NCBI RefSeq assembly: GCF_038025025.1
Contig: NW_027117338.1
Span: 558,001 to 622,000 of the forward strand
DNA: 64,000 nt
Reading direction: 5' to 3'
Origin: Phyllosticta citribraziliensis
Lineage: Eukaryota
The stretch's first letter is position 1; the number at the start of each line of letters is the position of its first letter. The position numbers were made by a program, and so were the translations under genes. Of this stretch, positions 2,820 through 52,585 are shown in pieces. A model generated the notes under the pieces. It was not told the DNA's origin. It made no database searches and saw only the letters and a program-made list of their open reading frames with translations.

Positions 2820-5136
2820 ATGGCGTACAGCAAACGGCAGATTGTGACTGCGCTCAGCGTAGTGGTATGTGTCAACACCAGCCTTCAAATGTCTAGCTGA
2901 CAAGAATCTAGTACCTTCTCATACTCACGGTTCTGGCCTGGTGAGAAACTCCACGATATCGCAGAACATCCACCAGCAGAAGCTAACACGAGCACTGCGA
3001 CAGCTACGCGCATACGTCTGTTCAACGCTACTCCCTACCATTGTCTTCTTGGATCTCAGGGCTGCTCATCATCACGCCATTCCTGACGGGCATCATCGTG
3101 GATCGTCTCACTCGCATCCGGCCGACTTCCCACACCTCTGCCCTGACAATCTCGCCCTCCGCATCCTACGGCACGTTTCCCGGTCCCGACAATGATAGAG
3201 GCGGCGGCGGCGGCGGCGTTCCGCGAGCTGTCCTGCAGCTTCTGCCACGACACCACCTGCGGACTCAGCTTTCCGCGCTCGGCCTGACCGTGTTTCTCAC
3301 TGCGATGGCCTCTCTCGCTTCGCCGTACGTGACGCAGAATCGCGGACTCACTTGTGCGCTAGACAATGCATGGAGAGACTTGTTTCGGGCGCGCCGGGGC
3401 GGCGAGATTCAGTTGATTCAGGATGCATGGGAGTGTTGTGGATTACACAGTGTGTACGACATGGCGTGGCCGTTTGCGAGACACGCGGGCGGCGTCACTG
3501 AGAGGTCGAGATGCCGGCAGATGTATGGTAGGGAGACGAGTTGCTATGGAGTATGGGAGGAGGAAGAGAGGAGGACAGCGGGCATCGTGATTGGTGTTAC
3601 TGCAGGCGTGTGGTTGTGGAAGGTGTGCTTGACCCCTGAAAACTTGCCCCTGGATGCGAATCCCGACTAACATATCAGATGCTCGTCCTCTTCACGCCTC
3701 GACATCGGCCCTCGTGGCTTTCGACGCACCGGACGCCTCCCCCTGCACCACCGCCACGAGCCATACAGCAAAATGCCCCCTTCTTCCCCCGCGCCCTCAC
3801 CACCGCTCCGCACACCTCACCCCCACCACCCACGCCAGAGACATCTTCTGGCGCCGCCAATTTCTCAGCCACTCGCAACATCGCTCCCAATGCCAACAAA
3901 CCTCCGACCGATGATTCTGCGGACAACAGCTCCGTCACCCCCACCAACAACAACTTCCTCGCCAAATCCCCCTCGCGCAACATCCCCAAACGCGAACGCA
4001 ACCGGCCCTCGCGCCTCAACATCCCATATCACACTGCGACGCCAGATGCTGGCTACGCCAATTCGCCCGGCCCAGAAGTCGGCGACCTCGAGACTTCTTC
4101 ACTGTACCGCGACACATCCGACTCCGAGGCCGGCGACTCGAAACGCGGCGTGCGCTATGACGAGCTATCCTCCTCCGAAGACGAACACGAGCTCTTCGTC
4201 AACGGCGTGCCGTCGCCCGCGCTGCCCCCGCGTCCAGGGGCCGGAGGCGTCGAGGACGCGACGCCCCGGGGCGAATCGCCCGTCCTTGCGCAGTACCACC
4301 TCCGCCTCGCCAACGCGGCCGCCAACAAAAAAGGCGGCGCCAACAACAGCAACAGCAACAGCAGCAGCGGCACCAGCGGCGACAGACGCCCCTCCGCGTC
4401 GTCGCAGTTCGGCGTCCAGCACTACCGCCGCTCGCCGACGGCGTTCAAGTTCCCCATGTCCCCGCTGAGCACGCGCAGCGAGAACACGACGAACACGTCG
4501 ACGTCGGCGTCGGCGCAGAGTTCGCGCCCGCAGAGCCGCGGCGACGGACAGCCGGACACCAGTGGCGATAGCGGTCATGGCGACGCTGTCAACGGCGACA
4601 ACGCTGCCGCCGACCTCGACGCCTCCAGCGGCAACAACAGCAGCAGCGGCGACGACAGCGTGCAGACGGCCGTCGCCATCGACGACAACAACGCTGCGCC
4701 CGCCGTGCCCGTCCTCAAACCGAGTCCGCGCCGCGCCGTGCCTGCTCCCGGTGGTGGTGGTGCTGCTGCTGCTGCTGCCGCCGGCGGTGGCAGGCGCCTC
4801 AGCCCACGCCCGCGCTCGCGACACGCCGTGCTGAACGGCAGCACGGGGATCCCCAAACTGGCGGCCGGCGGCGGCGGCAACGCGCTCAACGGCGCAGCGG
4901 GGGCGGGGCACAAGAAGAGCTTCAGCAATGGGGGAGCAGGAACGTTTGGCTACGGCGCCGGCGGTGGCGGTGGCGGGAAACCGCACACGACGGTGCCCGC
5001 GGTGCTGATCACGGAGGTCGGCGATGATGATGATGATGCCTTTGATGATGGGCGCGTGGGCGAGGGCGGCGAGCAGCGGCCGGCGTCGAGGGAGCGTGTG
5101 CTTGTTAGGGCGGGCGGAGGGGGGGTGGACGAGTGA
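2820..5136 (+). CDS. Fungal tetraspanin (Tsp3-like) with very long low-complexity C-terminal tail; exons 2820-2864, 2912-2940, 3004-3622, 3679-5136
   Basis: Manual splicing gives one open frame: MAYSKRQIVTALSVV|YLLILTVLAC|YAHTSVQRYSLPL...; hydrophobic TM segments; large loop with IQDAWECCG and further Cys; GT..AG introns with gctgac/gctaac/actaac branch sites. Confidence 0.8.
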
Positions 5137-5865: not shown

Positions 5866-8412
5866 CTACCACGGCCTCCGCACCCCCCTCGCAACCGTAT
5901 CCGGCTTCTCGCCCGGCTGCGTGCCCTTGGGCCGCCGCGCCTTGACGGCCTTCATGCTCTGCCGCGGCCGCTCCTTGGGCCGCGCCTTTTGCGGCGCGTT
6001 GAGCACGCTGCCCATGAGCGGCCGCCGCGTTCCGATGCACGCCCCGTGCGGGCTGAAGACGTGGATTTGCGGGAACTGGACTTCGGGGCCGCGGGCGACG
6101 GCGTCGGTGTCGGCGTCAGGGGAGGGTTCGGAGGAGGGTTCCGGAGATGGTGGTGTTGCGGAGGCGTCCTCTTGCTGTTCTGCTTCTGGCGATGCTGCTG
6201 CGGTTTCGTGTGGTTGTTGCGCTGCAGCGGCGTCGTCGCCTGTCTTTGCCTCTGCCTCTGTCTCCGAAGCCTTCGCCTCGCCCGCTTCTCCCTGCATCCT
6301 TTTCTTCCCCGCGATCGCGTCTGCTGCCTCCTCGATCCCGTGAATCTTGCCCCTGAACCGCCGCGTCTGCGCCGTCACCTCCACCCACCCCAGCCCCTCA
6401 ATCAGCACATCAACAGCCCACACCACAAACGGCAGGTTGTCCGCCTTCAGGCGCGTCACGTCCTTGCGCACGAGCGGGCCCGCCGCCGTCTTGGTGACGT
6501 CGTAGGCCAGCGGCACGACGCCCGCGCTGCGCATGTGGCGGCGCGCGGCTTCATCCGCCCAGTTTTTGACGCCCGAGCGCTCGTTCTCGAGTTTGCCGCG
6601 CTCACGCGCCACGGCCTTGTTCGTGCTGCACTTGTGCCACGGCAGCTCGACGAACGGGTGCACGAGGTAGACGAGGTCGGTGGTGGCGGGCGTGATGCGC
6701 ACGAGGCCGCCGCCCAGCACGAGCGACTCGTGCGCCTTGAGCACGATGCGCTCAGTCTTGTGTCGCTTATTTAGGAGCAGCTTGGAGCGGTGCTGCGGCG
6801 CGACGTATTGGTCCATGCCGGCGCGGTCGAGGCCCGGGAGGTCGATGAGCTCGCCGCGGCCGCGCGCAAAGGGGATGCGGATGGGTGAGGCGGTCGTGCC
6901 TGGCAGGTGCGATATTATTGGCATGACAGGGTAGTCGACTTCTTTGCGTGGGGGTGGCAGGAGAGAGGTTTCGGAAAAGGAGGTGTAGTCTTGCTCGGCG
7001 CTTGGAGATTCTTTCAAGTCGATGTCTTCTTTGGTGTTTTCTTCTAGACCAGCGTCCGGGTTTTCTGCTTGCGAAATTTCCGACTTGGCTTGCTGGCCGT
7101 TTTTTTCGAGGGCTTGGGCGTCAAACTCATTCTCGACTGCTGTCTCTTCTCCGGAAGTTCTTGTATCTTTCTGAATATCTTCGACTTTTGCCTCATTCTC
7201 CGAAGCTTCCAAGGTTTGCTCTTCCGCTTGAGCCGTTGGATCTTCTTCATTGGATTCTGATCTGACCTCTTGCACCTCTTGATTCACTTTTGGCGAAAGG
7301 TTGGTGTCAAGCTCAGTGTCTTTTCCCTTGGGGGCAGGATCGGAAGTGTCCCAGGATTTCTTCTGGTCCTTTTCAGCTTGCTCTCGAAGCTGGTGAACGT
7401 CGACGTAATCCTTCTTGCCCTTTGGAAAGACGACTTCAAAGAGGCTGCTCTTTCCAACATTGACCTTGCCCACGAACCAGCTCGCGCCGCCGCGCTCGAG
7501 AATCTCTTGCTTGACGGCACTGGTCCACCACCCTCGTTTCGCGCTCACAAGATGGACGTTGCCCAAGCGCACATTGTCTCTGTACTCCCTACCTATTTTC
7601 TCGCGGAGGACGTCAATAATGTACGCCATGAGTCTTCTCGACATGTCCTCCTGCGGCACCAGCAGGTCGGCTCGAGTGATGATGAACTCAACATGAGAAT
7701 GTTTGCCGTCTTGCCATTTTGATTTCGACGCCCTTCGACCGCGCGAACGAAGTGGCGATAAGTCTAGAGCTCTGGTTATGTCAGGGATCACCGACATGGG
7801 GAAATCTGCAGCGTCGACGACATGGTAGATGCAGTTGCGCTTGTGCGGCGACTCTTGGATCATGGCTTTGATGGCCTTTATCGATGGGTGATCAATTGGA
7901 ACCCCTTCACGATGGTTCATCAGCCTATGGCAACGATTGCACAAGGGCGGCGGCGGCGCTGGCTTTGGCGGAGGATTTGTGGATTCAGTGACGCCCAGCT
8001 GCTCCCGTAGGCTTGGATCAAGCTTTGCGACTGCTTCAGCGTATATGTCGTCCTCTCGCTTTTTTGGGAGCTCGGGCTCTTGGTCACGCTTAAGATAGGC
8101 CTTCACATGGTTCATGTCGGCAGAATAGTAGCCAGCGAGGTCCGGGGCCACGGTTTGTGACGGGGCGCCACAGCCTGGACATGACAGCGGCAGTGCTCTG
8201 ATGAGGGAGTTCTTGGACAAGTGGGAGGGTTGTTCTGGTTCAGCTACTGATGAGGTGGTTTCGTCGGCTTGTCGCCATGGAGCCAAGGACGAAAAAGTTC
8301 GCTCCTTTCTGGCAGCTTTCGAGTTGGAAACAAGGTTCGGTAATGTTCCCAGACGACGTGTAGTAGCGAAGGGGAGTCTGATGCGCGAGAGACGGCGTAA
8401 TGAGGGTTGCAT
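5866..8412 (-). CDS. GEP3: Mitochondrial circularly permuted GTPase Gep3/Mtg3 (YqeH/NOA1 family)
   Basis: CPGCG and CNRC Zn-binding motifs, VVDAADFPMS, TRADLL (G4), SAKRGW, GKVNVGKS (G1), PGTT (G2), DLPG (G3); Arg-rich presequence from ATG 8412. Confidence 0.9.
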   Translation of the reverse strand: MQPSLRRLSRIRLPFATTRRLGTLPNLVSNSKAARKERTFSSLAPWRQADETTSSVAEPEQPSHLSKNSLIRALPLSCPGCGAPSQTVAPDLAGYYSADMNHVKAYLKRDQEPELPKKREDDIYAEAVAKLDPSLREQLGVTESTNPPPKPAPPPPLCNRCHRLMNHREGVPIDHPSIKAIKAMIQESPHKRNCIYHVVDAADFPMSVIPDITRALDLSPLRSRGRRASKSKWQDGKHSHVEFIITRADLLVPQEDMSRRLMAYIIDVLREKIGREYRDNVRLGNVHLVSAKRGWWTSAVKQEILERGGASWFVGKVNVGKSSLFEVVFPKGKKDYVDVHQLREQAEKDQKKSWDTSDPAPKGKDTELDTNLSPKVNQEVQEVRSESNEEDPTAQAEEQTLEASENEAKVEDIQKDTRTSGEETAVENEFDAQALEKNGQQAKSEISQAENPDAGLEENTKEDIDLKESPSAEQDYTSFSETSLLPPPRKEVDYPVMPIISHLPGTTASPIRIPFARGRGELIDLPGLDRAGMDQYVAPQHRSKLLLNKRHKTERIVLKAHESLVLGGGLVRITPATTDLVYLVHPFVELPWHKCSTNKAVARERGKLENERSGVKNWADEAARRHMRSAGVVPLAYDVTKTAAGPLVRKDVTRLKADNLPFVVWAVDVLIEGLGWVEVTAQTRRFRGKIHGIEEAADAIAGKKRMQGEAGEAKASETEAEAKTGDDAAAAQQPHETAAASPEAEQQEDASATPPSPEPSSEPSPDADTDAVARGPEVQFPQIHVFSPHGACIGTRRPLMGSVLNAPQKARPKERPRQSMKAVKARRPKGTQPGEKPDTVARGVRRPW

Positions 8413-8741
8413 GTCGAGGTGTGGCGGATATAAAAAATTCCCGGATGGCAGGAGTTCCCAACGCGACCTGGCTACTGTACCGTTCCGTACCCGAAACTGG
8501 ACGCGTCCCGTCGGGCAGAACCGGGCCGGACAGCACGCACCGGGCAAGGCGGTGAAGGGTGAAGACGGCCCAAGCTCCCAAAATGGCAGTCCGAGGACGC
8601 AACAGTCACATCCTTGTCGCTCGCTCTTCTGGGGTAAATAACAGAGTCTCAACTCTCAGACCACTGCCGCCTCCACCCTCTCCACCTGCGTGTCCACTCA
8701 TCTCCTTGCCTCCAGACATCAATTGTCCTTGCATCGTCATC

Positions 8742-38521: not shown

Positions 38522-38743
38522 TGTCTATGAAAGGCGCCTGGTGGACGAGCTGCGGAGATGTTGGGCAAGTGGTGAGGGAGGCGGGACTTTTTCAAGTCGC
38601 GGGCGACGCGCAGACTGCGACACGGTCGCCAACGATTCGTGCCACTGCGGCGTCTCGGCTGATTGGCTCCATTCAATCCATGTTACCCACTCGACAGACC
38701 ACCACCTCAACTCTACAATACAACGCGAAAGCCAAATGCAGCG

Positions 38744-40279
38744 CTATTGCCTGTGAACACCAAAGACGCTGGATGCTATTTTGAAACTGACGTAGGTCCC
38801 AAGCGCAATCGCCCCCCCGGCGTAGAGCAACCACCTCAAATTCCTCCACTCAACGCTTCCGCCATACCTCAACTTTGCCCTCTCCGACTTCCCCAGCTCG
38901 GTCAAGATGCCATACTCGGGCACATGTTTGAATTCGAAGCTGGTCGCGCGGCCTTCCAGACCATACTTGCTATTCACAATCATATCCCACATCAGACGCC
39001 GGACGACGGCGACCTTGCTCTTGTCCCACGACGGCACTGCGCGGTTCATGTAGTGCATGACCATGAGGAAGAAACACTGGCCAGCCATGAGCGCCCAGTG
39101 GTACAGCGATGGCTGCGGCAGACCGAGGCGGTCACAGAGCTCGTTGCCGTTGAGCCAGCGGGCCGAGGCAATCAGCATGTCTGCGCTGGCGTACGTCGGC
39201 GGCTGGCTTTCCAGTGCTCTGATAATGTTGTTGGCGAGAATCTTGGACGTCTCCGACGGGTCGACCTCGTAAAGGAGGAGCGTCTCCATGACCGCTTTCG
39301 CCTTTGACGGCGTCGAAAAAGGCTCCGTCGGACATCCGACCAGGTACCCAATGTACCGCCATAGCGCAATGTAGTCGACGATTTCTTGCTCTCGAAGAAA
39401 GATGCCCTGCCGAGGAAAGCTGAGCCAAATCAAGGTCGCTGAAAAAGTGCCGATAGTCGCGATGCTGTCAAGATCGTTGATGGGAACGCCCCATTTCTCT
39501 ATGCTGTAGTAATCGGGTCGAGTTTCGGCAAGCTTCATGATGCGCATTCGGACAGCGGCGTGGAGCAAGCGCACGCGAATGCTGCTCGCGAACCCTTCTC
39601 CGCCGGGCTGTATGCTCTCAAGGCTCTTGGTGCACTGCAAGATGTGCTGCGTGGTCTCGAACAACCGTCTCCGTCCCACTTGGACGCCAAAGCCGCCTGT
39701 TCGCGCGAGAACCTCGACAACTCTTGCGGCGCCCATGCCACCAAGAAGAGACTGGAAACACAGGCCCGTAAGAGCAGCGCCCCCATACCTGTAAAAGACG
39801 TCCTGGCCGCGTGCTATCTGGTCCCAGTCTACCCAGTCCGGTACAGTGTTGACTTCGCGCCACAGCTTGCCCAGCGTCTCATCGTCGCTTGCATGGTCTC
39901 GCAGCAGCGCATACAAGTCTCGATGTTGTGGTTCCTGCTCCTTTGGATTCGCTGGGTTGCGATCGTCGCCCAGCGATCTGTCGACCTCCTCTGGTGCCTC
40001 ATCAGTCTTATCTGTGATTGCGCGACTGGTCCTTCTTCGAGGCAAGCCAGTGGTCTGGGGAGGCGAAATTTCGTTGAGACGCTTGAGTGCTTCTTCACCG
40101 AGAGCATCGTACGAATATGTCAGCGGTATCGCTTGGTCGAGGGTGAGGTGGTCTGGAGTGAGTTCAAAAGTGTACCCCCAGCATCTGCCACCACATTAGA
40201 CGCTACCCGCAGGTACGGTACCAAGTACTTACGATCGGGTATTATCTGTTCGGCGCCGAAACGGATGAGGCCACGCCAT
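38744..40279 (-). CDS. DUF2236 / MpaB-Lcp-like ER-bound oxygenase family protein; one 5' intron (about 40185-40232)
   Basis: Spliced start MAWPHPFRRRTDNTRS|CWGYTFELT; VPDWVDWDQIARGQDVFYRY, RRLFETTQ, RVRLLHAAVR, WGVPINDLD, YIALWRYIGYLVG; C-terminal TM. Confidence 0.88.
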
Positions 40280-41223
40280 AATGCTTGCTGTGAAGAGGCA
40301 GAACTGGACGGCGCGCAGCTGAGAGTGCGCTGTAGGAAATCAAATCATTCCAAGCGCAAAACCTTGGAAATCAAATCACGACACTTGAGAATCGACGTCA
40401 ATGACGCGCATGATCAATTATTACGCTTCGGGCGCCTTCTTTAACCGGGATGATGAGACGCCCGCTGGGCCGCTAGTAAGCTTGATTCGACAACGGCTCG
40501 GATCGAGAAAGCGAGGCTAGGCAATCTCGGTCGCTGGTGCTCGTTGCCACTCAAATCGTGTGCAGAAGGCATCTGGGTGTACCGTTGTCGTCATTGCCCA
40601 GTCGGTGCACCACCACAACTCGCCGAGCTTGGTACGACTGAACGCAACGCCGAAACGTTAAACGAAAAGCTTGTATCAACGAATCAGCTTTCTTCTTCAT
40701 TTCTTTCAGTGATCATTCTTCTGGTGGATCTTGATCAGCTCGAACATTCGCGGAATGCCATCAAACCCATTCACACGTCCATTTCATACCCGACTTCTTC
40801 TTTGATGCATTCCTGGCTTTTCCACAATGCAGAAGATGATCAACGGTGGAGCTGCCTACAGGCAAGAGAGGAGCATTTGCACACTGTCAAGATTCAGGCA
40901 CAACTGCCCACGGAAGCAGATCAAAGGTCCCCTGTCGCAGTCCCGTTACTTATCACGACTCAGATAGTGACGAAGATGTCACAAATTCAATGCCCCCTGA
41001 GCCGCAGCCGATGTGTCTAGAGCTTCGACTGTGGTGTGCGACTGTCTCGAAAAGATGTCGTTTGCTCTGTCTCAGTTCAACATTCACCACTCAATCGCTT
41101 TCTTCTTTCATTGATTGGGCCTTATAAATTGGTAGACAATGAACTACCAAATCATTTTCAGACCAGAACATCCATCACCTCCAACCTTTCCCCTATCGAC
41201 CAGCACATACAACAGCCACAGCC

Positions 41224-41417
41224 ATGAACGACATTCTAGCTTTTGCCATTGTCATCCTCCTTCGGTGATCGGCGCTTTTGTCGAATTCGCATGCGCCCGC
41301 ATCAGAGCAGAGTATTCGCCATGCTATTATACCATCGATACCGAGGATCTTCGTCAGGCGATGCGGGATGCACGCCGTAAAGAGCAATCACAGGCGAATC
41401 AGGCGAAAGAAGACTAA
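41224..41417 (+). pseudogene. Possible frameshifted small single-pass membrane protein gene
   Basis: cagccATG start gives MNDILAFAIVILL then a stop; a 1-nt shift near 41260 continues SVIGAFVEFACAR...RKEQSQANQAKED*. Confidence 0.3.
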
Positions 41418-41807
41418 GAACGCTTATGCCTCAGCGCTTGGAAAGGGAACAGGAGCAGGGTTTCGTAATTTATTTTGCGCGCGATGACTGAATTACTGTT
41501 GATTCCACACAAACTAAGAACGGATTGTCTATCGGCCACTATGAGCGAGTGTGTTCTGCGCTTGTTTGCTTTACTTTCTGCCTTGCGCTTGAGTTGCGGT
41601 GCACCTCTCCTATCTCTTGGATCAGTCTAGAATGATCGTCTCGACGAAAATGCTCGCTCGCAAAGTTGCGTCTTTGCCCTCTTCTTCTCGATCCATCGAA
41701 ATTTTGCAAACACCAGTCAAGCTCCTTTATCAATCTCCGTCAAAAGTGAACCTCTCCCGTTCCCAAGCTCCCCCGTCCCTTCTCCCTCCTCTCCTCCCAC
41801 CCTCAAC

Positions 41808-42134
41808 ATGGCAACTGCAACACCTCCGTGGAGCCAACTCAATCTGCAATTCAAACTGCAACTCGTTTGCTCCATCGAAGGCCTCTTGTATGCCGTCATC
41901 ATCGGCCTCCTCGTTTTCGTGGTGATCATGCTGTGTGTCAACGCACTAGACGACACTGCAGAAAGATGGACAGGAGTTGGCCAGCACCGCCGCGCTTATG
42001 GTCAGCAGCAACAAGAAGAGCAACGCACCCGCGGACGGCGCGTCGGTCGGCAGATTGTCCCGACGCTTTGGCAGTGGATTGCGCTTTGGGTGCGTGTGCA
42101 GAGAGGGGAAATCGGGGTGGTCTTTGAGATGTAA
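41808..42134 (+). CDS. Small orphan membrane protein
   Basis: ctcaacATGg context after a CT-rich leader; strong TM segment LLYAVIIGLLVFVVIMLCV. Confidence 0.45.
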   Translation: MATATPPWSQLNLQFKLQLVCSIEGLLYAVIIGLLVFVVIMLCVNALDDTAERWTGVGQHRRAYGQQQQEEQRTRGRRVGRQIVPTLWQWIALWVRVQRGEIGVVFEM

Positions 42135-42174
42135 TGGGAAAGGTCAGGGGGCGGCTTTTAGAGGGTGTTAGTCA

Positions 42175-42580
42175 GACTTTGGTTCCCGAAACCGACACCG
42201 AAATCAATGACGCACAAAGCGGAAGTGTGACTGCCTGCCTTGTCGCGTAATACTGTACTTGAGCGAAAGTTGAAAGCGAGAGAACCAGATCGGGCGCGTG
42301 GAAAGGGAATGTCTGTTTGGGTCTTGGACTACAGGGAAAGAGATGACTATCTTGGACTACAGGGGAAGAGATCACTACTCAGGCTTGAGTGCGCGGCTTT
42401 GTATAGTGGGCAGGTAGCGTGGTGTTGGTGGAAGAACATTGATGAGGTTTCGGCAATGTAATGCCCGTAAGCTATTAAGCTCCTAGAAGCCTCATAAGAT
42501 AGCTTTTTCTAGACCTACCTTTCCACTTCTAGCTACTTCTCTTTACCTTAAAGAGATGGCCGCATTAAAAGGCGCTTAGA
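42175..42580. repeat. Diverged ~400-bp dispersed repeat, copy 1 (contains a 28-bp tandem duplication at 42322-42377)
   Basis: Collinear matching blocks with 45235-45590: tgactgcctgccttgt, gagcgaa..gaaagc, ggaaaggg, ctcaggcttgag, cccgt...aagc, ccacttc/ccacctc, ccgcat. Confidence 0.75.
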
Positions 42581-42683
42581 ATGGAACTCACGCAGTCTAA
42601 ATCTCATCATTTGAGGTATTCAATCTACCTAACGTCGCTACAACCTTTGTGACCCCTGAGCTCCTGAACGCCGTAGTCATAAA

Positions 42684-43418
42684 TCAGATTTGCGATTGAA
42701 GTTTGAGCGTCCTGCTCATCAAGGAATTCAGGCTCTTTGTTTTTATTAAGCGCGTTCTAAGGAGCTGATTTTCCTTCTCTAACACATTCTTTTGATCTTC
42801 CAACTTCTTCACCTGTCTCTCTTGTTCCGCGATTTCTTGACGTGCCACGCAGAGACTATTCTCGAGTCCCCGGAGTCTCATCTGTTCCATCTGAAGGGCT
42901 ACCCTGAGGTCATTCACTTCCCCAGGATTGCACTCGAGGCGGAACGGGTCGTCAAACCAAGGAGCCGTCAAGGTAGGAACCTCTGTGGCTTGGAACGTGG
43001 CAGGGCCGGTAAGGTTGGTCGGCGGAAACAATAGAAAGTCATCTCTAGGGGTTCCATCGTAGGAGAACGGGGGTTCTTGTTTTGCTTCGTTTCACTTAGC
43101 GATTGCGTTGCGTTCGATGATCAAGCGTTTTCGTCTATACTTGGATGGCACTTACGTGATAGAAAAGACTCCTGGGTGTACCCGCTTCCCATTTCATCCG
43201 AGCCTAGACAAGGGGAAGGCGATGGCGCCATTGATCTATTGGCCACTGCTTCGTTTTGATGTGGGGCACTCTCCAAGTGGGATAGAAGAGAGGCTAGAGA
43301 AGCAGTTAGTCATGGTTTGTTTAGTTTAGCTGGAATCGAGTTAGTACTCACGCGGAGCGATGCCGTGGCTGTTTGCGGTGGATTTTCGAAATTTCCGTCT
43401 CATATTGGATGTAACCAT
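42684..43418 (-). CDS. Orphan coiled-coil protein A, 198 aa; exons 43418-43352, 43293-43156, 43075-42684
   Basis: gaaaATGg start; donors gtgagt and gtaagt; branch sites actaac and gctaag; spliced length 597 nt fully open; heptad-rich C-terminus LRGLENSLCVARQEIAEQERQVKKLEDQKNVLEKENQLLR. Confidence 0.65.
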
Positions 43419-43679
43419 TTTCAAGACGGGCCTGGCTAAGTTATTCTTTCTAGCTATGACTTAAGACACATCTTTATAGAAGGATATAATGGCCAAGAGA
43501 ATAGAGGTATTCTAATAATATTAGTCATTAGATAGGCTATGATAGCATCTATGACTTCCATACCCCTCATAGGAAGCACACGTGAGGAGCTCTGCCTCTG
43601 ACATTGGTTACCAGTACCCATATATAGTGCGAAGGAAGTGTTCTTCATGCTTTCCCTAACCTAGAGCTTCCCGAAGATG

Positions 43680-44130
43680 TGCGCTACCATATTTGAACTC
43701 TACGCGGCTAGTTGACACCAAAAACGCTTCGCCCTTGTGGATTCGAGTCGTAAGAGCCCCGACATCCTTTACATCGACAAGCTGGGCCGCAAGCGCATGA
43801 TGTTATCTGGTCCCATTGGCATGAATGCATGCCAGAGCACTGTCAGCTTCATCAACGCAACATACTTTCAACACTGGCCGAATTTCAAGGGGACTGGCTG
43901 GATTCCGGCAGTTCTCCTTCGCGTCGAGGTGGATTTTGCCGCAGCACTTGCATAGTTTGTTGTGCGCGGCTCAGTCAAGCTAGACGACGGGAACAAATGG
44001 CAAGCGTTTGGCCTGCTAGAGCCCAGGGCCGAGGCGCTATCGGCGTCGAAATTGCGGTACACAGAAAGGAAAAAGTAACTGGAGCCATAGTCATGCTTCT
44101 TTGGCAGGCACTTGCCTAAGGGGAGTAGAC
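43680..44130 (+). pseudogene. Degenerate fragment of an MFS sugar porter
   Basis: ILYIDKLGRKRMMLSGPIGM matches the D(R/K)xGRR/K loop; followed by a GWIP-like segment; stops present, no start, most helices missing. Confidence 0.4.
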
Positions 44131-45234
44131 TTCCTTCAAATGATTCTAGACCATTAAGTGTATGCTGTTTGGGTTGGCTTTCCGGAACACGCGAGAGCAA
44201 GGAAACTTCACGGTGTCTTGGCTTATCATCACTGGCTCGCCTCTTCAACTGTCTGTCTTGACATGAATCAACACACGACTGGACGCGCAGCAAGACGAGC
44301 ATTCGATGGTTATCTGACTTTTTGTTCTTTGCCAGTTGATTGATCAACAGTGACAGAATAATCGAACATACTTCTTGGCCCTCCGGAACGTCATTCGTTC
44401 GATCACACCTGCGATATGATGCCAAACCTCTCGCGCTGCGAATATTTGAAAGAATCTGCAGAGGGCCGCGGAGCATCATGAATCTGGACCTGACCACTGG
44501 ACTAAAGTTTGAGCTTAAAGCCGAGTGCTTTCAACGTTGTGTGTGAGCCGTGAAACGGTGGTGCTGCGCTTGCGAGTGTCGGCGCACATGACTTAGTCGT
44601 CATAGACTTGCAATGGCCAAAAAGAACGAATATACAACAATGATGTGAATAGTCATATGTAAGAAGTCACAATGTCCCCTAAGAGAGGTGCATAAAATGG
44701 AGAAGTGAAGCGGATCAAAGTTTGGGTCCAAGTCCTAATCCATAAGTGCAGGACGAATGTGTGTCTGGTCAATGTACTGTAGACGGACTTGTCTTATCGC
44801 GCCATACCGATGTTTGCAGCTGACTTGTGCCGGGGACACCTCCGGTGACCAGCCTGTGCCCGCTGCTCCGCGAACAGGTTTCAAAGGTGGTGGGTTTTGT
44901 CAGGGATACAGGCCTTTGGAAATTAGCGAAATGGCACGAGTAGCCCCTCTGGATTGGTGCTAGGATGTTGGTAGGATTTAGACATGTGAACAGACAAACG
45001 AGAAGATGTGGAATGGCCGGCGAATTACCTTTTGATAGTTGGGCATCGCTCAAGTACAGCCCAACAACTGCCCGCCTCCCGAGGATGAACAGTCGTCAAG
45101 CAATTCCAGGACAGGGCCAGCAAGCATCCCGGCTTTCCTCCGACGCTTTCGGATATGTGAATTGAGTCAAGGGGGCATAGGACAGGGGGCAGGGGGCAGG
45201 GGGCAAGGGGGCAACTAGTAAGAGGACATTGATT

Positions 45235-45590
45235 GACCGTGGGTTCCTAAAAGGGGAGTAGGGAACCACAACGAGGAGAATGACTGCCTGCCTTGTTGCG
45301 CAAGTTCGCAATTGGAGCGAAGCCGGAAAGCTGGAGAACTGGGTATTCGCGAGGAAAGGGGGCGTTTTCTAGAGCCTGGGCTAACGGCTCAGGCTTGAGC
45401 AGGCAGCTTCAATGCAGAGGAGGAGGTGTGGTGGTGGTGGTAGACCTTCAAAAATGTCTAAGAAAAATTATCCCGTGATATATAAAGCCTTAGGCATCTA
45501 GGAAGCTATGTCCTATTCTCTCCCCACCTCTCCACCTCAGATTTACTGTGTTTGACCAAAAGTGGTTACCGCATGAGACATTGCGCGAAT
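45235..45590. repeat. Diverged ~400-bp dispersed repeat, copy 2
   Basis: Same orientation and collinear blocks as 42175-42580. Confidence 0.75.
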
Positions 45591-45843
45591 TTGCACAGGT
45601 TCATTACTGCTAGGGAATACTCAATTGAAGATTCCTGTCTACCACAATGACACTACAAGCTGTGCATTATCATAGAGGCAGAGAAAGAGTAGAGGTCATG
45701 AGCTGCGGTCGCAATGCAGACCGCAGCAGCTAACTAAAAGAAGGAATGACTATACTATAATAGGAAAGTACTAGTCCCAAATAGTCAAGCGAGGACCAAA
45801 TGAGCAGAGAACCCAAGGAAAACGCGCGAGAACCAGTCTTGCA

Positions 45844-46353
45844 TCAATAATATCCAAGTTCGACAAAAGACCTGGCTTCAAGATTACTGACACGCTCCTC
45901 AAACCTGGCTTCGAGATCTGTGGCACGCTCCAACACCGGCGCGATTCGACCCCATCCCTCAACAACCATCCGCGTCAAAGACGCGTTGTTGGTCCTGAGA
46001 ACCGCGTTCTCTTCCTTTAGCTCGCCGAGCTGATTTTGCAACCGCAAGTATCTCCGCTTCAAGATGTCGAAGCGCATTTGTCCAGGATCGTGTGGCTCCG
46101 GCTCGACGCTTGGCCGCTTGGGCCCCGCGTCGCCGCAGTCACGCCTGTTGCCGACCTTGCAGTCCGGCAGTGTGCAATGGTCAGTTCGACCATCGAGGTT
46201 TGCGTGCGACATCGTCATGGAGCTGACGGAGGGAGGCAGTGCGGTCTGCTCTGCTTTCGGAACTGGAATCTCTTCATTACTATCAGCGACGGCGCCGAGG
46301 GTTCAAGCCAGCTCGCCTGTCTCGGGGCAATACCCACCTGCGCCACTTGACAT
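45844..46353 (-). CDS. Orphan coiled-coil protein B, at least 147 aa; exons 46353-46338 and 46271-45844 (frame open further upstream to 46562)
   Basis: aaaaATG start; gtgggt donor, gctgat branch, aag acceptor; 444 nt open; coiled coil LKRRYLRLQNQLGELKEENAVLRTNNASL. Confidence 0.5.
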
Positions 46354-47605
46354 TTTTTTGTTGTTCTCGGGATGAGCCAGTCGCTGGTTGATGTCCCAAA
46401 TGCGTCGGATCACCGTAGAAGGGTCGGCGAGCGCAGACAAAGCTTGCAGTCCTTGCTCCTGATTGAAGTATAGAAATATTGGGGGAAGAGAGTACGACTG
46501 AGTTTGTTGCGCCTGTGGAAGAAAAAATCCCTCCGATGCATTGAAAGGCAGCGTCTTTATAGCTTACACAAGATAGGACGGGAGCAAAGGCTTAGATAGA
46601 GCTTGGCATACGTGTAAAGAGTTATTCCATCCCGGATCCTACTGGATGCGCGGCTTCTAAGCATTACTAAGGGTATTGAACAGTATTCCCTAGCATAAGT
46701 TCTGGCCGGTGTCGAGGAGTACCAAAGTAAAAGGGGGTGAAAGCTTCCTTCTTCCAGTTGCCAGTCTTGTCAGACTCTGCTTGCATGTGACTGTCCGCGG
46801 ACCCAAAGCACCGGTGTAGATGCAGGTCCTGCGAGCCCTGCCATCCTCCGCATCGAGAGTGATATCTGACCCCTCGACGCGAGCCCTATCGGCGACAACA
46901 TGAGACTAGCCGACGCTTATAGCGGCCAGCTGGATGCATTTCGTGCCCCTGCGAATCGAGACCCATTTCGAAAGCCGTTGCATTAGTGTCGAGCGCCAAA
47001 AAACCCTCATTGCAGCCGAACCTGTTGTGCATGCAGGGGGAAGCTCTTCTTTGGGCCTCTGGCAGCAATAGGCAAGCCAAAAAAAGCTGGAACGCGGGGA
47101 CTAGGTCTGTGCTCGCCATTCGTTATGACTCGAGACTTGTTCTGATATGGCATGCCTCTGTGAGTGGATAGCGCTTTGGCCGACGGAGGATGAGAGCAAG
47201 CCAAATCGCCAGTGCGCAGACATGACGCTCGCGGATTGGTTGCAACCGGACTTCCAATGCGTTTCGGATTAGCCCTTGCGGAACAAGTCTGCAGACCAGA
47301 ATAGCAAAGTTCGCAGCGTCGTTTTCGCAGGTCTGGACCTGGGCAGAAGTGACGAGAAGCTCAGCGGGGTTCCGCTGTGTAAGCGAATGGCGTTGCCAGC
47401 AGGAACTCCAGCTCTGCAGATCGCCTTGCAGCTCGATAACGACTTCGCTGGCGAGCAAGCCGCTGGTGATTTGATGTCATGAACGTAGACATTTGGCGGG
47501 CATGTTGACATTGGCGCTGGAGCAACAGAAAACATGTATAGAAATTGTTTAGCTAGGCATCGCTAAAGTACAGCCCGACACCTGGACAGCTCTCTTCCTC
47601 TCAGA

Positions 47606-48654
47606 TCAACAGTCCTTAAGCACTTCACTGATAGGGACAGAAAGCGTCTCGGATATCATCAACCGCTTTCGGAGACCCAGACTCTGGTGTTGGAGCGTTG
47701 TGATGGTCTCCTGCTGGTGCTTGTTGGTGGTTTCGAGGAAGGCGATTCGACCACCTAGCTGCTGCTTGTACAGAGCCATCACGTGGTCTTTTGCAGTCAG
47801 GCTCATCTCCAAGTGCTGGACTTGCCCTTGGAGGCTGATCTGGAAGTTGAGCTCCGCCTCGCGCCTACCAGTGTCCTCAGCCTGAGGGTCCTTGTGAGCG
47901 CCGCGATTCCCCATCTGGACCCGGTAGAGGCTCTCTCGCGCCTTGCAGAGCTGTTCCAACACGCGTCGACATTTATCTTCTTTAAAGGCAAGCTGCTCTC
48001 TGAGCCCTTTGAGCTCGAGGCGCAGTTCTTCGGCTTCTTTTCGTAAAGGGCCAAGCAGCTGCTCGATGTCATTTATTTCAGAGTAAGGTCCCGTGGAGTG
48101 ACTGCCGTTGCCAGTCGCAATTCCCTGTGACTTCTTGCGATGCTGCATCTGAGCACCGGCGGGAACGAGCGGCGGGGCTGCTGATGGAGAGCCGCCTGAA
48201 TAGATCGGCGTTGTCAAGACTCCATGCGGATTTGGGGCGGAGGGGGCCGTGTGGTGAGGTGCTATGGCACGCCGCGCCGCAGCTTGGTTGGCTTTAGGGT
48301 TGTCAGCAACTACACTAACTCATCCACCTAGAGACGACACTTACATGAAGCGACTTCAATCATCTGAAGCGCGTTGTTTGAGCGCCCTTCGTGGATTCCC
48401 AACACACCAAGGGGTTGGTATGAAGGGTCGACCGAATTGCCCTCTAGTCCACGCACCGTCGTAGTCGATGGTGCAGGGGTTTGGCGTTGCTCGGGACCAT
48501 GCAGAGGAGTCATAAATGATGCTAAAGAGATGTTAGCATTGGCGAAACGGCGGATCTGTCAGGTCGGAGCGAGTTCTAGACGGGGTTTACCTGGGCAAAT
48601 GGGGCATTGGTAGAATTGTTGGTTTGTAGTCGACGCGTGCGGCCTCTGAGACAT
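47606..48654 (-). CDS. Orphan coiled-coil protein C, 308 aa; exons 48654-48591, 48521-48345, 48291-47606
   Basis: Donors gtaaac and gtaagt, branch sites gctaac and gctgac; 927 nt spliced open frame joins ORF-track pieces 48328..48513 and 47606..48217; two coiled-coil blocks. Confidence 0.7.
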
Positions 48655-48744
48655 AGACGGAGCACTGCTGGCACTGGCTGTCGCTCTGAGCTCGCTCTGT
48701 GGACGTTGCATGATGAAGGTCTTGAAAATTCAAGGCGTTGGAGG

Positions 48745-48826
48745 AGCTGGGAAGGAATCGAGCAGCTGGGAAGGAATCGAGCAGCTGGGAAGGAATCGAG
48801 CAGCTGGGTTGGAATCGAGCAGCTGG
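48745..48826. repeat. 19-bp minisatellite, about 4.3 copies
   Basis: agctgggaaggaatcgagc x3, then agctgggttggaatcgagc and agctgg. Confidence 0.95.
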
Positions 48827-48985
48827 TTTGGGTGTATGGTCGCGGAAAATCAAGGCACTGAAGGAGTTGGATCCCCGTCGAGATATCGGACTAGGAAGAA
48901 CTCTTGAGAACCCAGCGAAGATCATGCGGGCGCTGAACCAGTTTGCGAGTCAGCGGCGGTCGGATTACGACCCTTACCTATCATG

Positions 48986-49389
48986 TCGAACTTCACATCT
49001 CCCTGCTTCTACCCTGGCTTACCATGGAGGGCTCAACTCGCTGCCGGCTCCGCGCCTTCCAAAAAAGTCAGTTTACTGGTCTGAGGCGTTTTGCACAGGG
49101 CTTTTGGCTCACCTGGTAGCTCAACTAATGGTCTCCCGTCACTATCACGACGGGCAGAGTATTTGGACGCAGCTCACGACGTGATGGCCCAGACCCGCCA
49201 TATCGAACCTCGCATATCCCTGCTTCTACCTTGGTTTGCGACGGAGGGCGCAACTCGCTGGCCGGCTCTGCAGCTTCAAACTCGTCAGCTGCTAATCTGA
49301 GGCGTTTTGCATAGGGCTTCTGACTCACCTGGTAGCTCCACGGATGCACTGTGTCCTTTACATCAACGACGAGCAGAGTATTTGGACGC
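48986..49389. repeat. Diverged tandem duplication, period about 217 bp (48986-49170 and 49203-49389)
   Basis: Shared blocks tccctgcttctacc, caactcgctg, tctgaggcgttttgca.agggctt, ctcacctggtagctc, gcagagtatttggacgc. Confidence 0.9.
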
Positions 49390-49929
49390 GTGACAAGAAT
49401 GGAAGTGGAATAGTAGCTGAGTGTCTGTTCATTTACGACTACCGATGACTACGGAAGGCGGAGTGGCAACAATCATGGTGTGGTCAAAGTTTGGGGTTCA
49501 CTGGCATAGTTTGGCAGGATGTGCATCGGTACCTACCGACGGATACGGTGGGAGGTGTGGTTGAGTAATGGGTTGGAGAGCGGACATGCACGGCGGCAGT
49601 CGGCACGGTGCGCAGCAAGGCCAAAGATCACCAGGTTCGACATCGAATGGCAGCCCAGCACTTTGGTTACTGAGCTGCCGGGCACAACAGGCACATGCCA
49701 GGTCAAGAGCAGACGAAGGGGAGTGGGGCAAAACTTGCTCACTTACCTGGTGCAATGTGCGGCCCATCACGCAAAGAAGGGGGGGCTTTTCTAAGAAGAC
49801 AGTTCAATTTAATTTCTGTATGCAAGACGAGCAAAAGCAGACTAACCTTTCTTTCAAGAAAGCGACCGTGACCCCAGAAAGGAGGCAAGCCCCCCAGCAT
49901 GTCCGTGTGAAGAGATAGGGACGCTGTCC

Positions 49930-51924
49930 TTACTCCAGACGGATACCCGCAGCGCGATTCTTCCTGGCCGTGGCATCCATGGCCGTGTTCATGCTGGTGT
50001 GCTGACTCGAGTCCAGACTGCTCATCGCCTCGCGCTTCTTCTCTTCTTCGATCTTCTTGAGCCGTTTCTCCGTCTTTTGCTTGCCGGAACCCTTGCCGTG
50101 GAACTGGTGACTGAGGTGCTTGAAAGCTTCTTTTGCGTTCATATGGCGACCATGTTCGTCGACGTACTTGAGGTCGACATTGGGTTTGTATTCCTTGTTG
50201 AAGATTTCGGCCATGCGCTTCGACTCGATCCGGTCGCGGTCTTGATTAGCCTTTTGGGCGAGGGCCTCGCGCTCCCGCGCTGACATGTGCTCCATGCGTC
50301 CACTGCGGCGATCACGCTCGCGTTGCAATTTGGCGCGCTGCTCTGCTTCGACCATGGCCTTGTTGCGCTCGGCAATGAAGCGCTGATGCCCAACGAAGTT
50401 TTCATTGAGTTCCTGCCCGTTCGAATCCTTGACTTGGCCACGCTGCCGGAGAAGCCTGAGTGTAGCGCCAACGCCACGCTCAACGATTTCCTCGTCATCC
50501 AGACCCGTAGTGGTCATGTCGGCAACTGCAGATGCACTGCCTGCCCGGGCCTGGCGCTCTGCTTCATCTTCAACCTCGGCATAGGATTGCTCCATGTTGG
50601 TATCGCCCTCGTCGTCGATCTCGTTGGGTTCAGAACCCTGGCGAGGTGGTTGAGCAGACTTGCTACGCTGACTTTGCGGACGGTCGGCAGGGCCCTGGAG
50701 ATTGGCGATGAATTCAGTCGTTTCGTCGATAACGAGACCCGGCTCTTCCTCTGGAGTCTCGGTGCTGTCCAAAACGCCAGGGGTAGCCGAAGCTTCCTCG
50801 CGGATCTGTCGGGCAAGATCTTCGGGCTTGACCTTCTTCCGCTTCTTCAAAGCCTGTCGTCTCTGCAAGGCCAGCTGTGCTTGCAAGTCCTCATCATCGA
50901 CAAAGTTGTCGTCGAACGTTTTCTTGGGCGCGGATTTGCTCTCGGGCTGGTCAACGTCCATGGCGACAGCGTCAGGCACCTCGGGGGCGGGAAATATGTC
51001 GTCATCGTCCAGGGCCTTTTTCCTCGACTTCTTTTCCTTCTTCTTCTTCGGCTTCTTGACCTTGACTTGAGACGGATCGACGTAGTCCGAGGCGGGTGTG
51101 GATTCGTCTTTGAGAAGGTCGAGGCTGATCTTGATGGATCGGGACGGACCAGACGCATCACCAGCCGTGTTTCTCTCTGCCTCCTCTTTTGTGCGTCCTT
51201 GGCCGTCCAAGGTAAAGAGTTTGCGCTTCTTGCCGTCAATCTCTTCGTCATACTGAGCGAGAATGGCTCCCTGAGTGGTATCATCCAGATTGTTTGGGTC
51301 GTAGGTTCTCTTCCTCTTCTTCGACTCGAGACGTTCATTAACCTTTTCTGCATCCCGAATGTTGACAGCCTCGAGCTCGTCCCCGCCCTCCTCATCGTCA
51401 ACAGCGGTGTCTTTGAGCGTCAAGATGTGCTCCTCGCCTTCCCCAAACTGGTCCAACTCGTGACCGACTTTGACACCAGCTAGGTCGAGCGCAGTGTACT
51501 CGGCCTGAGCCTGGGCCTCTCGCTCTGCCAACTCTTGCTCCAGCTTCTTCAATTTTTCGATCTTCTTCTGTCGTTTCTTCTGTCCTGCGAGCCACGTCTT
51601 GGCATCGACATCGTCGCCGTCTCCAAGTCCCTTGCCTTCGAGTTGCGCAAAGCGCTGGGCCTGCTCGCGTGCCTTTTTGATGGCCTCCTTGCGCGCGTTG
51701 GCTTTGGCCCTGGCCTCTTGCTCGGCCAGATGCTTGCTCCAGTTGCCGTAGCTGGCCTCGGTGCGCGTTTCGAGGGTGCTGGCAGGCTCTTCGTCCGAGT
51801 CGGAGCCTTTGGATTCTTGGAAGACGGGGCCGGATGGGGCTTCCTGGCCGGGGACCGGGAGGGGCTTCATGCCCATGGCCACGCGAATCTTGTTCGCCTC
51901 CTCGATGGAGATGGCGTCGGCCAT
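49930..51924 (-). CDS. SNU66: U4/U6.U5 tri-snRNP protein Snu66 / SART-1
   Basis: N-terminal HIND motif ISIEEANKIRVAMGMKPL; GVKVGH, ILTLKD, YKPNVDLKYVDEHGR, KEAFKHLSHQFHGKGSGKQKTEKRL. Confidence 0.96.
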   Translation of the reverse strand: MADAISIEEANKIRVAMGMKPLPVPGQEAPSGPVFQESKGSDSDEEPASTLETRTEASYGNWSKHLAEQEARAKANARKEAIKKAREQAQRFAQLEGKGLGDGDDVDAKTWLAGQKKRQKKIEKLKKLEQELAEREAQAQAEYTALDLAGVKVGHELDQFGEGEEHILTLKDTAVDDEEGGDELEAVNIRDAEKVNERLESKKRKRTYDPNNLDDTTQGAILAQYDEEIDGKKRKLFTLDGQGRTKEEAERNTAGDASGPSRSIKISLDLLKDESTPASDYVDPSQVKVKKPKKKKEKKSRKKALDDDDIFPAPEVPDAVAMDVDQPESKSAPKKTFDDNFVDDEDLQAQLALQRRQALKKRKKVKPEDLARQIREEASATPGVLDSTETPEEEPGLVIDETTEFIANLQGPADRPQSQRSKSAQPPRQGSEPNEIDDEGDTNMEQSYAEVEDEAERQARAGSASAVADMTTTGLDDEEIVERGVGATLRLLRQRGQVKDSNGQELNENFVGHQRFIAERNKAMVEAEQRAKLQRERDRRSGRMEHMSAREREALAQKANQDRDRIESKRMAEIFNKEYKPNVDLKYVDEHGRHMNAKEAFKHLSHQFHGKGSGKQKTEKRLKKIEEEKKREAMSSLDSSQHTSMNTAMDATARKNRAAGIRLE

Positions 51925-52585
51925 GGTTGCGATGTGGTTTGATGGGTGGTGGAGACGGAATTGACGGTGAGGAGGTGAGAGGTGGTTTGCAGGAGGACGG
52001 GGCGAGGTTCCATTGTCAGCGACGGGCGGGCGACGGCCGACAGCCAGACAAGCGATGCCAAGCTTTGCTCACCGCCTGGTAGTTCTGCCGCGGCACAGGC
52101 CACACTCCGCCAACATAAAAACTTCGCCGGGGGCCCACCATTCTCTCTACCAAAACAAGGACTTGTGTCCAGCACCTCCTGCGCGCTTTCGAGCGTCTGC
52201 GGTCGAGGAGCTGCGACAGTTCGGCTGGCCACGCTTTGGGGCATTTTGCGTTCCTCACGGTAGCCGACAGGTCTGAGATTGAAGCAACGCTCGTCTGAAT
52301 CGTTCCCTTCGGGTTGAGCGCCTAGGGCGAGTGCTTGCCGGCTCCATATTCCTACTCTTGGCATTGAGTCCTCTTCGGAGGGTCGTCGTTTAGACGGTGA
52401 GGCCGGGACTAACCATGGATTGCCAACATGCATGCTTTGGATAGCCTTGAAATTGAATGTTTTATATCTACATGTACACAATTCTCTCCTCAACGTGCTT
52501 GCTCTTGACCAGCTCCTGAGCCTCATTGCCGTGACTGCTTGACCGTACCATGACCGCCTGCCCAGTTCCTTGCCTCCACCAACAT

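Follow-up and report, generated by a model that had tools for sequence, protein, structure and literature searches.

What kind of genes occupy a gap of about 9.5 kb that lies between two conserved genes of the fungus Phyllosticta citribraziliensis and contains no recognisable housekeeping gene? The gap belongs to a stretch of 64,000 nucleotides (contig NW_027117338.1 of assembly GCF_038025025.1, positions 558,001 to 622,000 of the forward strand), called the window here, and all coordinates below are positions in it. Passages of Buijs et al. (2022, PMC9073689) describe the species as an endophyte of citrus, with P. citrichinaensis as its nearest relative. A preliminary description, made from the letters of the window alone, had placed three spliced minus-strand genes in the gap, here called A, B and C, and had suggested that they form a fast-evolving, tandemly expanded family. 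All three proved to be real genes: splicing of B and C is seen in RNA contigs, and A has an annotated model. For the interval as a whole we lean, with slightly more belief than doubt, towards a region of gene turnover restricted to the P. citribraziliensis / P. citrichinensis lineage, holding three real, spliced, non-secreted protein genes whose products would combine a disordered arm with a pairing coil and act in the manner of scaffolds or adaptors.

Splicing of the three genes

Splice evidence was taken from the assembled contigs of two public runs (X1 and X2) from two studies; such contigs show junctions and cover, not strand, transcript ends or expression level. We take both runs as RNA-derived because their contigs skip GT-AG introns, the run records themselves not saying RNA. 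Each of the seven contig joints has CT..AC ends on the plus strand, which correspond to GT-AG introns of the minus strand, and six of the seven were present in both runs.

Gene B has one coding intron (46337-46272, 66 nt, GTGGGT..AAG, phase 1), and the resulting joint 46271/46338 appears in both runs; in X2 the contig spans 45656-46271 and 46338-46506. Gene C has two, 48590-48522 (69 nt) and 48344-48292 (53 nt), again in phase 1 and with both joints in both runs. The two introns of C predicted from the letters alone are exactly those skipped in both runs, and for B the observed frame agrees with the limits 45844-46353 first given. With the observed introns removed, the frames of B and C are open from ATG to stop, over 147 and 327 codons. 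The start of C admits two choices, the ATG at 48711 (with A at -3), which gives a first exon of 121 nt, and a second in-frame methionine at 48654, which gives one of 64 nt. Full exon coordinates are listed in Table 1.

In gene A, the introns are 43351-43294 (58 nt), with the canonical signals GTGAGT, ACTAAC and TAG, and 43155-43085 (71 nt, GTAAGT..AAG), both in phase 1. The gene as first described agrees with the deposited model P0002 except at the acceptor of intron 2, which had been set 9 nt downstream of that in P0002, a change that stays in frame and leaves three residues fewer. Six bins covering gene A and the spacer between A and B (42236-45037) have zero cover in either run, a result that is uninformative on whether A is silent.

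Taken together, all five coding introns are in phase 1, as had been claimed. If fungal intron phases occur at frequencies of about 0.42/0.31/0.27, the probability that all five fall in one phase by chance is roughly 0.02. The exons ahead of the last measure 67 and 138 nt in A, 16 nt in B, and 121 or 64 and 177 nt in C. The exon layout proposed for A and C holds in that both have a frame-neutral middle exon (138 and 177 nt) behind a first exon of 67 nt in A and, depending on the start, 121 or 64 nt in C.

The contigs also correct two deposited gene models, one for B at its intron and one for C at its start. The B model P0003 (BC567DRAFT_45758) has a 54-nt GC-AG intron, 46316-46263, that is seen in no contig. 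The C model P0001 (BC567DRAFT_217198), with 234 residues, begins within exon 2, uses intron 2 and omits 93 upstream in-frame codons.

Taxonomic distribution

The two flanks of the interval were confirmed by Pfam. The left-flank open reading frame (ORF) at 38747-40195(-) matches MPAB_Lcp_cat, formerly DUF2236 (E 3.9e-23), and the right-flank ORF at 49933-52068(-) matches SART-1/SNU66 (E 2.2e-182). In the roughly 9 kb between them no Pfam family reached its cut-off in the five interval ORFs scanned; the best matches there were generic coiled-coil noise, all of them under the cut-off. The absence of a recognisable housekeeping gene thus stands as described.

Against 1,835,955,588 cluster representatives, phmmer returned for C a single match at E <=0.001, which is C itself. 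A word-based search of 5.77 billion proteins returned, for C, one match among 744 candidates and, for A, one among 20, in both cases from its own species only; for B it returned two matches among 31 candidates, both from Phyllosticta. The word-based searches of A and B were limited to proteins of 0.55-1.75 times the query length. No match to an unrelated well-known family appeared for any of the three in these searches. As far as searches of protein sets can tell, A, B and C are taxonomically restricted (orphan) genes.

The relative of B in P. citrichinensis, protein P0004, is instructive. Residues 133-209 of P0004 are 90% identical to the residues of B encoded at 46077-45847(-), and the similarity covers the last 77 residues only. 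In both species the conserved stretch begins at a methionine (residue 71 of B), and the parts upstream are unrelated. The conserved product of B might accordingly be a coiled-coil microprotein of 77 residues.

Such a distribution is what one would look for if A, B and C were three unrelated young genes, arisen de novo or from unknown sources in a permissive gap, with disorder plus an amphipathic helix as the easiest build for a new protein. This account, to which we give tentative credit well short of an even chance, is favoured by the absence of any relative of C among the cluster representatives and of A beyond its own species, and by a sister species that shows only the methionine-initial coil of B. 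Its difficulty lies first with gene C, since 327 codons and three exons are long for a de novo gene; further points on both sides arise with the comparison of the proteins and with the repeats of the interval.

Orphans can also be genes whose homologues escape detection through fast evolution, as set out in part of Weisman, Murray and Eddy (2020, PMC7660931). The genes described here resemble that class in that they are short, disordered and of low complexity, and in that, the coil of B apart, not even the sister species retains a similarity to them.

Protein architecture

An S/P/T-rich N-terminus followed by a C-terminal coiled coil had been described for all three proteins, and both composition and AlphaFold2 models of A and C agree with it. 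Serine, threonine and proline together make up 0.33, 0.30 and 0.33 of the N-terminal parts. In a single-sequence AlphaFold2 model of A, residues 1-121 are predicted to be unstructured and residues 122-200 to form one helix, with a predicted local distance difference test score (pLDDT) of 95-99. For C, modelled as the 234-residue P0001, residues 1-72 have pLDDT <50 and two helices are predicted, 75-134 and 142-222, whose block-mean pLDDT is mostly 86-94 and falls to 63-71 around the break between them. Heptad periodicity is pronounced in A, which has 10 strong 28-residue windows, none of 300 shuffles having more than 5; on this crude heptad score, B and C pass only the weaker threshold.

We then modelled two copies of A residues 115-201. 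The predicted complex is a parallel in-register dimer with an interface score (ipSAE, interaction prediction score from aligned errors) of 0.47 in three runs, where the best of three controls scored 0.00, with i-to-i contacts at a spacing of 3-4 from residue 120 to 198, agreement of at least 93% of contacts between runs and a partner pLDDT of at least 85. Among microbial proteins, 21 of the 30 homodimers with solved structures reach the mark of the dimer tool and none of 23 single chains does; among eukaryotic ones, 17 of 29 homodimers (1 of 7 where no older solved relative exists) reach it and none of 30 single chains. Pairing of the A coil is supported, though not demonstrated, by the model. 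By sequence inspection none of the three proteins has a hydrophobic N-terminus, and we therefore read them as intracellular.

Of known coiled-coil systems, two come near enough to merit comparison. The long amphipathic helix of A, modelled as a parallel in-register dimer, recalls the bZIP and leucine-zipper families (bZIP_1, bZIP_2, HALZ), and B has a weak match to HALZ (E 0.071; 13.7 bits, far under the 28.1-bit cut-off). However, no basic DNA-contact region was recognised in A, B or C, and bZIP_1, bZIP_2 and bZIP_Maf gave no match at E <=1 in their last exons. The best Pfam match of A is the ATG16 coiled coil (PF08614), at residues 52-114 of the last exon (E 0.0053), but at 17.4 bits against a cut-off of 33.7 it concerns the generic coiled-coil part only, the ATG5-binding N-terminus of ATG16 being unmatched in A.

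Searches against known structures and in the ESM Atlas yielded only matches at noise level. By sequence, the best matches in the PDB were at E 0.52 for C (the ROCK1 coil) and E 0.27 for A, with none at E <=1 for B. For C, Foldseek against the PDB reached a best E of 7, and VIA-align a best Z of 8.2 with assorted helical hairpins, which is under the noise level of that tool for long helices. In the ESM Atlas, A reached a feature score of 0.87 and a structural template-modelling (TM) score of 0.45, and B a feature score of 0.84, all under the lead level of 0.9.

Coding signal

The last exons of A, B and C have codon-usage log-likelihoods of 0.095, 0.121 and 0.116 per codon. The mean of 16 Pfam-supported ORFs of the window is 0.161, and over all 404 ORFs of 75-240 codons the 90th percentile is 0.085 and the 95th 0.11. 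The GC content at third codon positions is 0.58-0.65 in these exons and 0.64 in the training set. Earlier exons are neutral, with 0.007 and -0.073 for the first two exons of A and -0.062 for the first exon of C.

These neutral values would suit an explanation in which A, B and C do not function as protein genes at all, their ORFs being accidents of spliced non-coding RNAs or of decaying pseudogenes. The same explanation can point to the differences in gene models between two deposited annotations and to a neighbouring transcript, unit D (below), which shows that the interval yields spliced RNA without a long ORF. We nevertheless regard it as improbable, and most plausible for A. Splicing keeps the frames open across two or three exons, the scores of the last exons match or exceed the 90th-95th percentile for ORFs of the window, and the coil of B is 90% conserved where its surroundings are not; to these may be added the very confident helix and dimer models predicted for A.

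Relationship among A, B and C

Do the three genes descend from one another? In a first explanation, in-place duplication of an ancestor that already had the disordered front, the coiled-coil tail and the phase-1 introns gave rise to copies that then diverged beyond alignment. A common strand and order, the uniform intron phase, the frame-neutral middle exon of A and C and the common protein architecture all favour a single family of this kind.

Direct comparison of the proteins is less favourable. Smith-Waterman scores were 45 for A-B (shuffles 30.3+-5.0), 49 for A-C (35.7+-5.5) and 29 for B-C (32.4), and 14, 26 and 763 of 1000 composition shuffles, respectively, reached them. Under a stricter scheme, with the disordered and helical halves shuffled separately, these counts rose to 31 for A-B, 115 for A-C and 835 for B-C, so that B and C have no similarity by either measure. 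BLASTP gave E 0.05 for A-C as a single comparison. Between A and B, the motif LEDQKNVLEKENQLLRT / LQNQLGELKEENAVLRT outscores 986 of 1000 shuffles, and hhalign with a two-sequence profile of B gave E 0.008 over 21 columns around ...ENxxLRT, but at a probability of only 4.9%. Against C the same profile reached 0.25%, and the profile comparison that had been proposed as a check of the shared family lends it no support. Heptad periodicity alone can produce A-B and A-C signals as weak as these.

At the DNA level, neither blastn nor shuffling joined the coding regions or the 3' ends of A, B and C. A similarity between the 3' untranslated regions (UTRs) of A and C that had been noticed by eye was rejected on the same grounds, as detailed below.

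The absence of significant likeness among the proteins is in turn a point for three unrelated young genes, an account that leaves the common intron phase, and the non-coding element described next, unexplained. All in all, a single tandemly expanded family seems to us rather unlikely. Of the proposal in the preliminary description, the taxonomic restriction, the shared architecture and the traces of local duplication stand; descent of the three from one family is not borne out, similarity being marginal or absent.

Local duplications

That the interval has undergone local duplication is evident in three places: a relic of gene C, an element (E) behind A and B, and a tandem within unit D.

The relic of C lies downstream of B and corresponds to 47550-47673 (blastn 72% over 124 nt, E 3.7e-13). 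Its local alignment score of 50 compares with 9.3+-1.3 in shuffles, none of 500 of which reached it, and tblastn finds residues 213-234 of P0001 there at 41%. The relic shows that the locus duplicates genes, as a single family would require. An identity of only 72% suggests an old duplication and a sequence resembling C that is probably older than the species, which sits badly with a recent origin of C as an unrelated young gene.

Element E is non-coding and occurs at a similar offset behind A (E_A) and B (E_B). Positions 42213-42307 of E_A and 45267-45360 of E_B are 71% identical over 96 nt (blastn, E 1.6e-6), and a MAFFT alignment has conserved blocks over about 290 columns. This too favours one family, yet on that account coding sequence would have diverged faster than the non-coding element, which would be unusual. 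Within E_A, a 28-nt sequence is repeated twice in tandem at 42322-42377 (92% identity, Tandem Repeats Finder, TRF), a duplication that is not in E_B.

We also considered repeat-induced point mutation (RIP) as a cause of fast divergence and rejected it. Transitions and transversions in three repeat pairs stand at 23:14, 11:18 and 29:32, without an excess of transitions, and RIP indices are normal; a single family is thereby left with no RIP signature to explain its fast decay.

Unit D, between C and SNU66, is transcribed and has two introns, 49328-49274 (55 nt) and 49112-49056 (57 nt), both found in both runs. It contains a 217-nt tandem duplication (48971-49170 against 49188-49389; blastn 77% over 204 nt, E 8e-37) with one intron in each copy. 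After splicing, the longest stop-free frame within D is 60 aa, and longer ones, of 79-99 aa, reach beyond D into either the SNU66 3'UTR or the C leader. Inside the 19-nt tandem repeat ahead of C, the RNA contigs of either side break off, probably for reasons of assembly, and this break fits each of three identities for D: an RNA of its own, a leader ahead of C, or SNU66 read-through. Each unit of the 19-nt repeat carries the palindrome CAGCTG.

Homology links unit D to the N-terminal 102 residues of P0004, although in D the frame shifts after residue 15 and is broken by stops: tblastn of P0004 finds residues 1-15 at 87%, residues 13-39 in another frame and residues 15-64 with stops, and P0004 reads through a stretch that is an intron in D. 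The D-like stretches beside the coil of B are only 47-87% identical to P0004, in shifting frames. P0004 joins its D-like sequence straight to the B-like coil, where in P. citribraziliensis gene C and the front of B lie between. The two species would differ structurally at this junction, or else P0004 would be a mis-join.

Origin and function of the gene cluster

Our preferred reading, a lineage-restricted region of gene turnover with three working protein genes, would unfold as follows. The region would have been built and rebuilt by old local duplications, of which the 3' relic of C, element E behind A and B and the tandem exon-intron unit in D are the remains. Given these traces, common descent is probable for some of the genes at least, one from another, even if the sequences no longer prove it. 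Overall, we place the chance that two or more of the three are paralogues just short of even, and consider it rather unlikely that all three are. In each product the C-terminal helix would pair into a coiled coil, in A as a parallel in-register dimer of about 11 heptads and in C through two long helices; formation of dimers or higher oligomers is the most likely mode. The disordered S/T/P-rich arm would carry short binding motifs, and A, B and C would be small proteins that act as scaffolds or adaptors in the cytoplasm or the nucleus.

Several observations weigh against this reading. The deposited models of two assemblies conflict with each other and with the RNA, the B intron being wrong and C truncated, and annotation is therefore not independent proof of the genes. 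The codon score is inflated, since an open frame by definition has no stops. The structures were predicted from single sequences, and any amphipathic helix tends toward a dimer model. By Smith-Waterman shuffles, BLASTP and hhalign, the three proteins do not resemble one another significantly, and between the 3' regions of A and C there is no DNA similarity, 487 of 500 shuffles reaching the score. Finally, nothing in the analysis points to a specific cellular process for the three genes.

Sexual-stage, non-self recognition or drive functions had been guessed at, and we found nothing in their support. A domain scan of the window at E <=1e-5 covered 98 of the 111 ORFs of at least 140 aa (the other 13 being ORFs of the interval scan or off-frame overlaps of flank genes), and among these 98 there were no HET, HMG/MAT or transposon domains, although spliced or shorter genes could escape such a scan. 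The same scan informs a comparison with the clusters of lineage-specific genes (LSGs) of Neurospora, the nearest parallel that has been described. Passages of Wang et al. (2023, PMC10684091) report 670 LSGs there, with clusters near telomeres and beside HET-domain genes. Like those genes, the ones described here have no recognisable domain, a narrow lineage and a physically clustered, transcribed arrangement. In contrast, the present cluster lies among housekeeping genes, with no HET domain in the scanned ORFs and no connection to telomeres, and its members share a disordered-plus-coiled-coil build and an intron phase.

A bolder reading would make the gap between mpaB and SNU66 a birth-and-death nursery of genes, in which unit D, duplicated exon-intron units and relics stand beside expressed orphans. 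As C sits between the D-like and B-like sequences that P0004 joins, it could have been gained, or have moved in, after or near the split of the species. A spliced ORF-less unit such as D is also the raw material expected for gene birth, which is a point for unrelated young genes as well. We hold the nursery to be unlikely. If true, it would be a rare case of a single locus that, compared among close species, lets the path from a spliced non-coding RNA to a gene for a coiled-coil protein be followed step by step.

Should the preferred reading of lineage-restricted turnover hold, the locus would illustrate, compactly and with good documentation, the way in which filamentous fungi maintain and renew lineage-restricted genes in the midst of housekeeping genes, as within 9 kb it has three expressed or annotated orphans, a spliced transcript that lacks an ORF, and duplication relics that can be dated. 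For comparison there are several sister species with sequenced genomes among the Phyllosticta of citrus. In itself it is an ordinary cluster of lineage-restricted genes, which opens no long-standing question and offers no lead to pathogenicity, mating or incompatibility.

Flanking genes and neighbourhood

The features of the interval and its two flanking genes are collected in Table 1.

Table 1. Coordinates of genes, transcripts, repeats and relics in and beside the interval (CDS, coding sequence)
Feature	Position	Strand	Evidence and remarks
mpaB-like oxygenase gene, left flank	38744..40471	-	Pfam and RNA contig; 5' exon to at least 40471
Candidate small ORF, 108 aa from first Met	41808..42134	+	within ORF 41631-42134; one hydrophobic membrane-span-like stretch
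Element E_A, non-coding	42200..42460	.	blastn, MAFFT; about 380-470 nt downstream of A stop
Gene A, 201 aa	43418-43352, 43293-43156, 43084-42684 (exons)	-	translation equals NCBI model P0002 (J3D65DRAFT_654476)
Relic of gene C, last 22 codons and 3'UTR	45036..45153	-	stop codon lost; about 700 nt downstream of B stop
Element E_B, counterpart of E_A	45230..45480	.	blastn, MAFFT; about 480-580 nt downstream of B stop
Gene B transcript	45656..46506	-	CDS 46353-46338 plus 46271-45844, 147 aa; joint in both runs
Gene C transcript	47592..48774	-	CDS 48711-48591, 48521-48345, 48291-47606; 327 aa from first in-frame ATG
19-nt tandem repeat, 4.5 copies (repeat family D1)	48741..48826	.	TRF score 151, 95% matches; 30-115 nt upstream of C ATG 48711
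Unit D, transcribed, twice spliced, without long ORF	48779..49431	-	joints in both runs
SNU66/SART-1 gene, right flank	49439..52160	-	Pfam and RNA contigs; stop 49932-49930

On the opposite strand of the interval, the small ORF at 41808-42134(+) may be a fourth small gene. Its codon score is mildly positive (0.075 per codon), it has no Pfam family above the cut-off, and the bin over it (41769-42235) has low cover in run X1, with a mean word depth of 11. A further ORF of 220 aa, 43871-44530(-), was considered and is probably no gene, with a codon score of 0.008 and no Pfam family. An Rfam and tRNA scan of 40000-50500 gave no match.

The neighbourhood in the 64-kb window is that of ordinary housekeeping genes, including an aminotransferase, Ctf8, a bromodomain protein, APP1, SLAC1, Rgp1, ribosomal L28, PTH2 and a carboxylesterase, among others. 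Two long frames of the window, 5869-8655(-) with 929 codons and 3640-5133(+) with 498 codons, are without a Pfam family at E <=1e-5. The four protein numbers of the interval models do not occur in the supplement files of Buijs et al. (2022) that were searched.

Beyond Phyllosticta, four fungal metagenome contigs (L001-L004) carry relatives of SNU66 at 33-62% identity, and none of 13 other window proteins matches there. The window neighbours L28, PTH2, mpaB-like, Neugrin and Rgp1 were not found in the flanks on these contigs, and gene order around SNU66 is therefore not conserved at that distance.

Both flanking genes are themselves spliced. In the mpaB-like gene, a contig of run X1 joins 38738-40184 to 40233-40471 across a 48-nt intron (40232-40185). 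For SNU66, the X2 contig comprises 49439-49790 plus 49847-51632, and the joint 49790/49847 is present in both runs. The SNU66 mRNA thus has a spliced 56-nt intron (49846-49791) within its 3'UTR, beginning 83 nt past the stop codon. An intron that far behind a stop is an arrangement able to mark an mRNA for nonsense-mediated decay.

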